From the sequence record MN850587.1: 64,000 nucleotides of DNA; one strand, 5' to 3'. Origin of the DNA: Escherichia phage mistaenkt. This document shows positions 1-406 of the stretch, in pieces (position 1 is the first letter of the stretch; the number at the start of each line of letters is the position of its first letter). The notes under the pieces are model-generated. The model searched no databases and was not told the origin of the DNA. It saw only the letters and a program-made list of their open reading frames with translations. A program made the position numbers and the translations under genes.

Positions 1-406
1 GCTAGCTTTTACGTAACTTTATAGCCCCTTTTACGTAACTTTATAGCGACTTTTAAGCCCTGCATAACATACTTTTAAGACAATAACAATCCCTTTTTAG
101 TAGTTCACAAGGTATCTAGCCAGCTTATAAGCTTATACCCTTATAAGATTCTTTTAAGGCTATAGGAAGCTCTATAAAGGGCTTTTAAGAGTGGGTTAAT
201 GTGATTGCTTAAGTTAGGCTGATAAGCTGTTATAGGGCTTTATAGAGCGTTTTAGACAATAGCCCTTCCCTTTGGGTTATGGGCTTATATTTAAGGGATT
301 GGTAACAATACCAATTAGTTGATTTGATAAGAGGATATAGAGTAAACTATAGAGTTATTGTTCTAAATGTCTTACAAGGTTCTGGGAAGGGATTTAGATG
401 TACGTT

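Follow-up and report, generated by a model that had tools for sequence, protein, structure and literature searches.

Phased short boxes beside the direct terminal repeat of a Felix O1-like phage: a candidate platform for DNA packaging

What purpose could be served by several hundred base pairs of repeat-rich, gene-free DNA at the edge of a phage genome sequence? The question arose for positions 1–406 of a 64 000-nucleotide stretch of Escherichia phage mistaenkt (record MN850587.1; this whole stretch is referred to as the window). An earlier note, made from the letters alone, had suggested a decayed cassette array, a protein-binding array, or part of an origin or terminal region. Its statement that the region holds no convincing ORFs is correct, the longest being a 32-aa TTG ORF at 324–422. 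Positions 1–1200 matched 214 phage records, which are Ounavirinae (Felix O1-like) without exception, and the best match was Mooglevirus Henu11 (91.6%); judged by these matches, the source of the window is an Ounavirinae (Felix O1-like) phage of the Mooglevirus lineage. An exact 41-mer from the window had no match in IMG/VR. The annotation of Mordin and a terminator scan of Henu11 reveal that convergent gene blocks, with a terminator at the end of each, bracket ∼ 1.5 kb without genes. In annotated relatives the homologue of 1–406 forms the right quarter of this gene-free region, for which, over its full length, 254 phage records give matches of 78–93% identity.

The repeats themselves are largely as first described. 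The 19-mer direct repeat TTTTACGTAACTTTATAGC is present twice, its first copy at 7–25 as had been given and its second at 29–47 rather than 30–48. TRF identifies a 22-bp tandem repeat, CTTTTACGTAACTTTATAGCCN, at 6–55 on the + strand (2.3 copies here, 1–2 copies in relatives), each unit of which contains the palindrome TTACGTAA and one CTTTATAG box. At least 10 copies of related 8-mers had been counted, and the count holds: the segment 17–245 contains an array of 11 boxes of the form CTWWWWAG, namely CTTTTAAG (starts at 50, 72, 151 and 182), CTTTATAG (17, 39 and 238), CTTATAAG (124 and 140), CTATAAAG (172) and CTTTTTAG (93), with successive spacings of 22, 11, 22, 21, 31, 16, 11, 21, 10 and 56 nt. 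Adjacency to GGGC or GCCC is likewise real, 5 of the 11 boxes abutting GGG(C) or CCC(C). The hairpin at 17434–17449, cited as carrying the same motif, exists; it had been quoted as the reverse complement, and its + strand reads GGGGCTTAAAAGCCCC. Composition, which the note had named as the possible ground for refutation, does not account for the enrichment, as 2000 dinucleotide-preserving shuffles of 1–406 contained 0.80 ± 0.87 boxes (maximum 6) against the 11 observed. In terms of density there are 27 boxes per kb in 1–406 versus 0.72 per kb (46 boxes) in the other 63.6 kb of the window.

The position of the array relative to the ends of the genome can be established from relatives. In the Felixounavirus UAB_Phi87, a direct terminal repeat (DTR) of 608 bp was mapped by Bal31 digestion and run-off sequencing, and the terminal SpeI fragments measured 4322 and 2819 bp (Bardina et al., PMC4837284). 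The UAB_Phi87 record (JN225449.1) is not opened at the physical ends, which we placed via the SpeI fragment sizes and the annotation of UAB_69 (GenBank OL656108); the latter has an annotated 618-bp DTR and is identical to UAB_Phi87 in sequence there. The only SpeI sites near the gene-free region of JN225449.1, at 13014 and 19582, enclose 6568 bp, compared with an expected 6533 bp (4322 + 2819 − 608). Three independent records from different laboratories carry an exact DTR at both record ends: D4 (581 bp; its announcement cites PhageTerm analysis), ECP2307 (592 bp) and SeKF_63 (613 bp). Their boundaries are shared, the left one reading ...ATCTGCTT|GGTAGCCC and the right one ...AAGGGGGC|TAGC, followed by TTTACGT.

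The 5′ end of the window reads GC|TAGCTTTTACGT and contains the conserved right-boundary word, the bases before GC lying outside the window. From there a base-for-base alignment runs through the DNA rightward of the DTR of UAB_Phi87 and UAB_69, the boundary word GCTAGC being shared, and 1–406 is 84–87% identical to the DNA directly right of the DTR in D4, UAB_69 and SeKF_63. The suggestion that the region belongs to a genome terminus was therefore well founded: in the multiple alignment the window opens GC|TAGCTTTTACG, 2 nt before the boundary of the three records and 4 nt before that of UAB_69, i.e. 2–4 nt inside the right boundary of the DTR mapped in relatives. The palindrome GCTAGC at 1–6 marks this boundary. 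Records with a DTR copy at each end place the cut at GC|TAGC, the UAB_69 annotation places it at GCTA|GC, and unique DNA begins at about 3–5. Since the window starts at the right boundary of the DTR, 3–406 would be unique, gene-free subterminal DNA between a DTR copy and the first terminator (407–428), an assignment that these alignments support well. The DTR of the window phage itself should lie to the left of position 1, with boundaries taken from homology. The chance that a random start in an ∼ 88-kb genome falls within ∼ 5 nt of the DTR boundary is ∼ 6e-5, which makes it very probable that the source sequence had been linearised at this physical end. Placement of the true ends is useful for opening and annotating Ounavirinae genomes, the majority of the 254 matching records apparently having been opened elsewhere.

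Two further observations concern the left DTR boundary. The Mooglevirus KMM2 record (nanopore) terminates 12 nt inside this boundary; its record ends overlap by 64 bp only, so we rejected this overlap as a DTR and used the record solely for the position of its assembly end. Just outside the boundary, the word ATCTGCTT (1921–1931 in the Henu11 locus, L002, and in relatives) resembles ATCTGTT. The concatemer junction of T7 has ATCTGTT as its class II pause signal, just outside the terminal repeat (161–167). We judged the likeness to a T7-type pause signal to be probably due to chance: the match is inexact and a T7-type RNA polymerase is absent.

Beyond the boxes, 1–406 contains several conserved blocks. 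Alignments of relatives identify TTCACAAG ... CCCTTATAAGATTCTTTTAAGG ... AAGCTCTATAAAGGGCTTTT at 103–186 as the most conserved; its homologue in Henu11 is an inverted copy of a block within the DTR. It is followed at 220–253 by a second conserved block, TGATAAGC..TATAGGGCTTTATAGAGCGTTT, a short tandem of TATAGAGCGT with a period of 10 in Henu11, and at 262–284 by a small, G+C-rich conserved hairpin, GCCCTTCCCTTTGGGTTATGGGC, seen in both alignments and folding. The 23-bp insertion AGGGATTGGTAACAATACCAATT at 294–316, which holds a 7-bp inverted repeat (ATTGGTA / TACCAAT), occurs in the window only and is absent in 24 of 24 aligned relatives. A last conserved block, TTGATTTGATAAGAGGATATAGAGTAAACTATAGAGTTATTG, was located at 318–360 by conservation across 25 sequences. 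The right bracket of the gene-free junction is formed by an intrinsic terminator on the − strand (AGCCCC-TTAAAT-GGGGCT followed by TTTT, 407–428), which closes the leftward gene block; it is annotated in Mordin, and its homologue was detected in Henu11. Between this terminator and the first gene lies a second hairpin, GGGGC-TAATT-GCCCC, followed by GCCCCGTTGCGGCG (441–465). The first gene (470–721, − strand) is transcribed toward the terminus and encodes an 83-aa homologue of Felix01p049 with no Pfam domain; indeed, a Pfam search of six flanking ORFs found zero domains.

The boxes are arranged in register with the DNA helix. In the window their starts are phased at ∼ 11.1 bp (29 of 2000 random placements equal the observed power, p ∼ 0.015), and the box classes of the whole Henu11 junction are phased with p values of 0.004–0.011 against random placement; taking window and Henu11 junction together, the best periods are 10.5–11.2 bp (p 0.004–0.015 overall). 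Autocorrelation of the bases at lags 11 and 22 ranks 1–300 top of 1274 segments of 300 nt (∼ 4 sd), and the excess in 1–406 is 0.05–0.08 at lags 10, 11, 12 and 22. The periodicity within 1–406 is modest, and the strong signal is found in the DTR, outside the window: the Henu11 DTR equivalent has a lag-11 autocorrelation of 0.43 versus a median of 0.27, where the largest background excess is 0.055 (221 windows). Throughout the junction, autocorrelation peaks at lags 10–12, 20–22 and 31–33, and TRF reports periods of 10, 11, 12, 20, 22 and 31 in Henu11.

In Henu11 (locus L002) the junction consists of the right-end subterminal segment (1345–1931), the DTR equivalent (1932–2503) and the homologue of the window segment (2504–2870), and all three are a patchwork of short tandem arrays. 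Each has its own box classes: CTATATAG and TCTAAATAGCCC in the left segment, CTTAACA and CTAACAAG in the DTR, and CTTTTAAG, CTTATAAG and CTTTATAG in the window segment. The DTR-box form TAACAR is strand-biased (18 versus 5 copies). Each DTR boundary has boxes to its left and to its right, the left and right DTR ends are related to one another as imperfect inverted copies (pair I2), and the blocks at 154–190 of the window are inverted copies of blocks internal to the DTR (pairs I3, I5 and I12). By this homology, a structure of 1.5 kb just reaches into the window with 1–406, and its core, the DTR, would lie outside. A model of hairpin priming by the inverted blocks that straddle the right DTR boundary was dropped, as comparison of Henu11 with D4 by eye revealed no compensatory changes in the arms; the centres of the inverted 8-mer pairs are diffuse, which also counts against it. 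A junction of like design is present in the Erwinia phage phiEa21-4 (Kolesnikvirus, a more distant Ounavirinae genus), whose DTR boundaries are not annotated. This phage has a syntenic gene-free gap of 1.2 kb (16472–17659) at the equivalent convergent position, with a lag-11 autocorrelation of 0.37 versus 0.28 and the boxes CTTCTAAG and TGTTAAGA; the word GTATATCTGCTT, located outside the left DTR boundary, is conserved in this gap.

The earlier note had allowed for a decayed cassette array. Conservation contradicts this: between genera, 1–406 is 84–87% identical to its Felixounavirus counterparts, compared with 64–76% for the next three ORFs, and the first encoded protein shares 44–66% identity with Felixounavirus. 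When 25 non-identical sequences are compared, the majority base has a frequency of 0.89 in 1–406 and of 0.77 in the first gene; an exact match to 137–158 served to retrieve 18 of the loci, and among them the invariance of that stretch arises by construction. The same stretch is also invariant in six BLAST-derived relatives. The boxes are conserved no better than the spacers (0.837 versus 0.802; 1330 of 5000 random placements as good, p = 0.27), and several are lost or interconverted within the family in relatives. It is thus the entire region that is under constraint, and we do not claim the 8-mers alone as functional units.

A sharp break in similarity occurs at ∼ 400–440. To the right of ∼ 407 the window shares 98–100% identity with Henu11 and an IMG/VR contig (L023), whereas to the left it is ∼ 82% identical to these two and ∼ 84–87% to Felixounavirus. 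Set against its relatives, the flank in the window is ∼ 82–87% identical to all, whereas its neighbouring genes are up to 100% identical to Henu11. This pattern indicates a probable recombination joint located where the terminator adjoins the end of the genome.

From the observed location, enrichment, ∼ 11-bp periodicity and conservation above the neighbouring genes, we infer that the array binds protein and has a role in packaging. Specifically, we give about an even chance to a model in which it serves as a helically phased nucleoprotein platform for cutting and packaging of the concatemer at a location that flanks the DTR. The concatemer junction would be ∼ 1.5 kb of transcription-free DNA running from the right-end subterminal DNA through the DTR to the window segment, with degenerate 8-bp boxes recurring about once per helical turn (10–12 bp) throughout. 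A putative phage protein, be it an architectural accessory or the partner through which the large terminase recognizes DNA, would bind cooperatively along one face of the array and form a nucleoprotein complex. This complex may mark the junction and position the cuts at ...ATCTGCTT|GGTAGCCC and ...AAGGGGGC|TAGC, and these two cuts would generate and duplicate the DTR during packaging. Of the earlier idea of a protein-binding array, then, the enrichment and the ∼ 11-bp phasing fit, the binding itself being putative. As in the recognition arrays of terminases, multiple short motifs flank the cleavage site and are helically phased. In Felix O1 no small terminase subunit has been recognized (PMC3185647). 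We also speculate, and think it rather unlikely, that the junction array is the loading platform for a candidate protein replacing the small terminase subunit, which would cover the junction in a filament or superhelix and fix the two cuts as mirror images.

Felix O1-like phages are widely used in Salmonella typing, biocontrol and therapy. The array at the DTR boundary offers a concrete DNA substrate with which to find the recognition protein, and its placement aids the engineering of packaging-competent vectors or reporter phages. The literature that we searched yielded no description of a periodic box array, and the PhageMaP study of Bas63 reports no result for the array region. The reports on UAB_Phi87 and UAB_69 mapped the repeat (PMC4837284; OL656108) but do not describe the periodic array and the flanks. 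The DTR was thus already known in relatives, whereas the periodic box array does not seem to be described in the searchable literature.

The arrangement can be compared with that of T7, whose subterminal short-repeat arrays SRL and SRR were reportedly described by Dunn and Studier in 1983, their function being unsettled. When we checked the T7 sequence, the 160-bp terminal repeat was followed by CCTAAAG boxes, with an autocorrelation of 0.54 at lag 13 and peaks at 13 and 26. Both systems have short, A/T-rich ...AAAG boxes in non-coding DNA immediately inside a short exact DTR; in the window the boxes begin 15 nt from the boundary and number 11 within 245 nt. The two differ in box and spacing, CCTAAAG recurring at 13 bp in T7 whereas the CTWWWWAG and TAACAAG classes recur at 10–12 and 22 bp here, and in extent, ∼ 170 bp per side in T7 against ∼ 1.5 kb here, where the boxes fill the DTR and the flanks on either side. 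The two arrays are not homologous in sequence, and neither phiOL and phiOR promoters nor a T7-type RNA polymerase are known from the Felix O1 group. Biologically, the array is a variation on the T7 theme and would be a moderate surprise for specialists.

Recognition sites of other phages provide a second comparison. The pac site of P1 consists of clusters of TGATCA/G hexamers, SPP1 has the pacL and pacR boxes, and lambda cosB contains the R sites. In these systems, as here, the cleavage site is flanked by a short motif in several copies, and helical phasing suggests that the DNA is wrapped on or along an oligomer of the recognition protein. In contrast to the 1.5-kb junction, for which no small terminase subunit is recognized, the P1, SPP1 and lambda sites span ∼ 100–250 bp and their small terminase subunit is known. 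They also serve cos or headful packaging, whereas the phages studied here have exact DTRs, and P1 pac depends on GATC methylation, whereas the window genome has zero GATC. A third likeness is to phi29 p6, which forms a nucleoprotein complex at the genome ends, and to parC of plasmid R1, with its 11-bp iterons bound by ParR: degenerate sites recur about once per helical turn over long stretches and build a co-operative superstructure. phi29, however, replicates from its ends by protein priming and has inverted terminal repeats, and R1 parC is a plasmid centromere.

Several features sit uneasily with packaging: the boxes are conserved no better than the spacers, and some are lost or altered in relatives, where the 22-bp unit varies from 1 to 2 copies; the periodicity of 1–406 is modest; 1.5 kb is far in excess of the DNA that known terminase recognition sites need; and the same boxes near the PolA gene would equally suit a general regulator or an origin-binding protein. 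The boxes may thus be a general architectural or regulatory array, that is, sites for a histone-like or regulatory phage protein which coats or bends the ends, is active at other intergenic regions too and has no direct role in terminase recognition; such an array might keep transcription away from the ends, or compact or protect them, as p6 does in phi29. We assign this explanation a low probability. It draws on the length of the array, well beyond what terminase sites require, on the second box cluster between the PolA gene and the gene divergent to it (36142–36398) and on boxes in early intergenic regions (1885–1941, 2629 and 6407), and the degenerate boxes, conserved no better than their spacers, are typical of recognition by periodic bendability and not by a strict sequence. 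However, the DTR and its cut sites form the centre of the array, box density outside the junction is just 0.7 per kb, and the neighbouring ORFs, without a Pfam domain, provide no candidate protein.

A replication origin is quite improbable in our estimate. Here the 22-mers and phased boxes would be the iterons of an initiator, with unwinding nearby, and the terminal position would be incidental or serve replication of the ends. Iteron-like repeats do occur in a transcription-free region, relatives have an 87% A+T tract, TATAAAATTTTTATAAAATA, ∼ 60–100 nt outside the left DTR boundary, and the box vocabulary is common to the region beside the DNA polymerase gene. However, the 22-mer, at 2.3 copies here and 1–2 in relatives, falls short of the at least three regular units of 17–22 bp expected of iterons. 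No DnaA box was found, even with 1 mismatch, in the window region or the whole Henu11 junction, and the junction lacks IHF and Fis consensus sites, the sole IHF-like match lying inside the window-specific insertion. A+T content in 1–406 is 65% versus 60% for the genome, and the A+T-rich tract is found only beyond the DTR, outside the window. In addition, the adjoining genes include no initiator-like candidate, and transcription converges at this site, whereas the cumulative GC-skew minimum and divergent transcription are found at 36 kb.

Neutral leftovers, whether decayed gene cassettes, terminator hairpins or an A+T-rich spacer homogenized by recombination between DTRs, were already disfavoured and are very hard to credit: hairpins of the GGGGCTTAAAAGCCCC type elsewhere do carry the same 8-mers, and the similarity break at ∼ 407 shows that the region recombines as a module, but it is more conserved than the flanking genes between genera, is kept over 1.2–1.5 kb in all 254 records and phiEa21-4, and has an ordered 11-bp periodicity that decay would not be expected to produce. 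A non-coding RNA gene within 1–406, to which conserved non-coding DNA with small hairpins (262–284 and 297–315) might point, is the most improbable explanation, since an Rfam scan of 1–1200 with E values up to 1 found no match in 1–406 (and a chance miRNA hit inside a gene only), sigma-70 promoters are not in excess (6 versus 3.6 at the window edge, 4 versus 4.3 in the Henu11 junction), the − strand folds with z = −1.3 (11 of 100 shuffles fold as well or better), and the motifs are largely palindromic and strand-symmetric, which argues for a function at the level of DNA.

Several observations were made elsewhere in the window. Between a − strand gene (35719–36141) and the divergent gene of a PolA-family DNA polymerase (36399–39098), the region 36142–36398 has 5 CTWWWWAG boxes in 140 nt (36150–36290), two of them 11 bp apart, and the cumulative GC-skew minimum falls here. 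This cluster could be a site for a shared regulator or a replication origin. A composite TACG-N(0–8)-box motif shared with 1921 and 36196 is found 4 times versus ∼ 2.4 expected, which is not significant. GATC has 0 sites in 1–64000 compared with ∼ 258 expected (order-2 Markov) and is absent from every related locus > 9 kb. The 6-bp palindromes that are missing include CTGCAG (27 expected), CAGCTG (18), ATGCAT (17) and GTGCAC (11). The absence of GATC and of these palindromes is an extreme avoidance of restriction and Dam sites.

Close to the array, on the − strand at 730–779 and 1059–1103, a leader is repeated that comprises TCTCCAGTTTAGGA... and TCCCTCCCCGTTGA with a G+C hairpin. The copies precede the ribosome-binding sites of leftward genes of small size and represent the 26-bp ‘start-associated sequence’-like repeat reported for Mordin (PMC4611695). 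Finally, two copies of a ∼ 57-bp intergenic repeat, at ∼ 2600–2660 and ∼ 6380–6440, contain the hairpin GGGGCTTA...TAAGCCCC and the CTTTTAAG vocabulary, and this repeat appears to match the 57-bp direct repeats of Felix O1 (PMC3185647).
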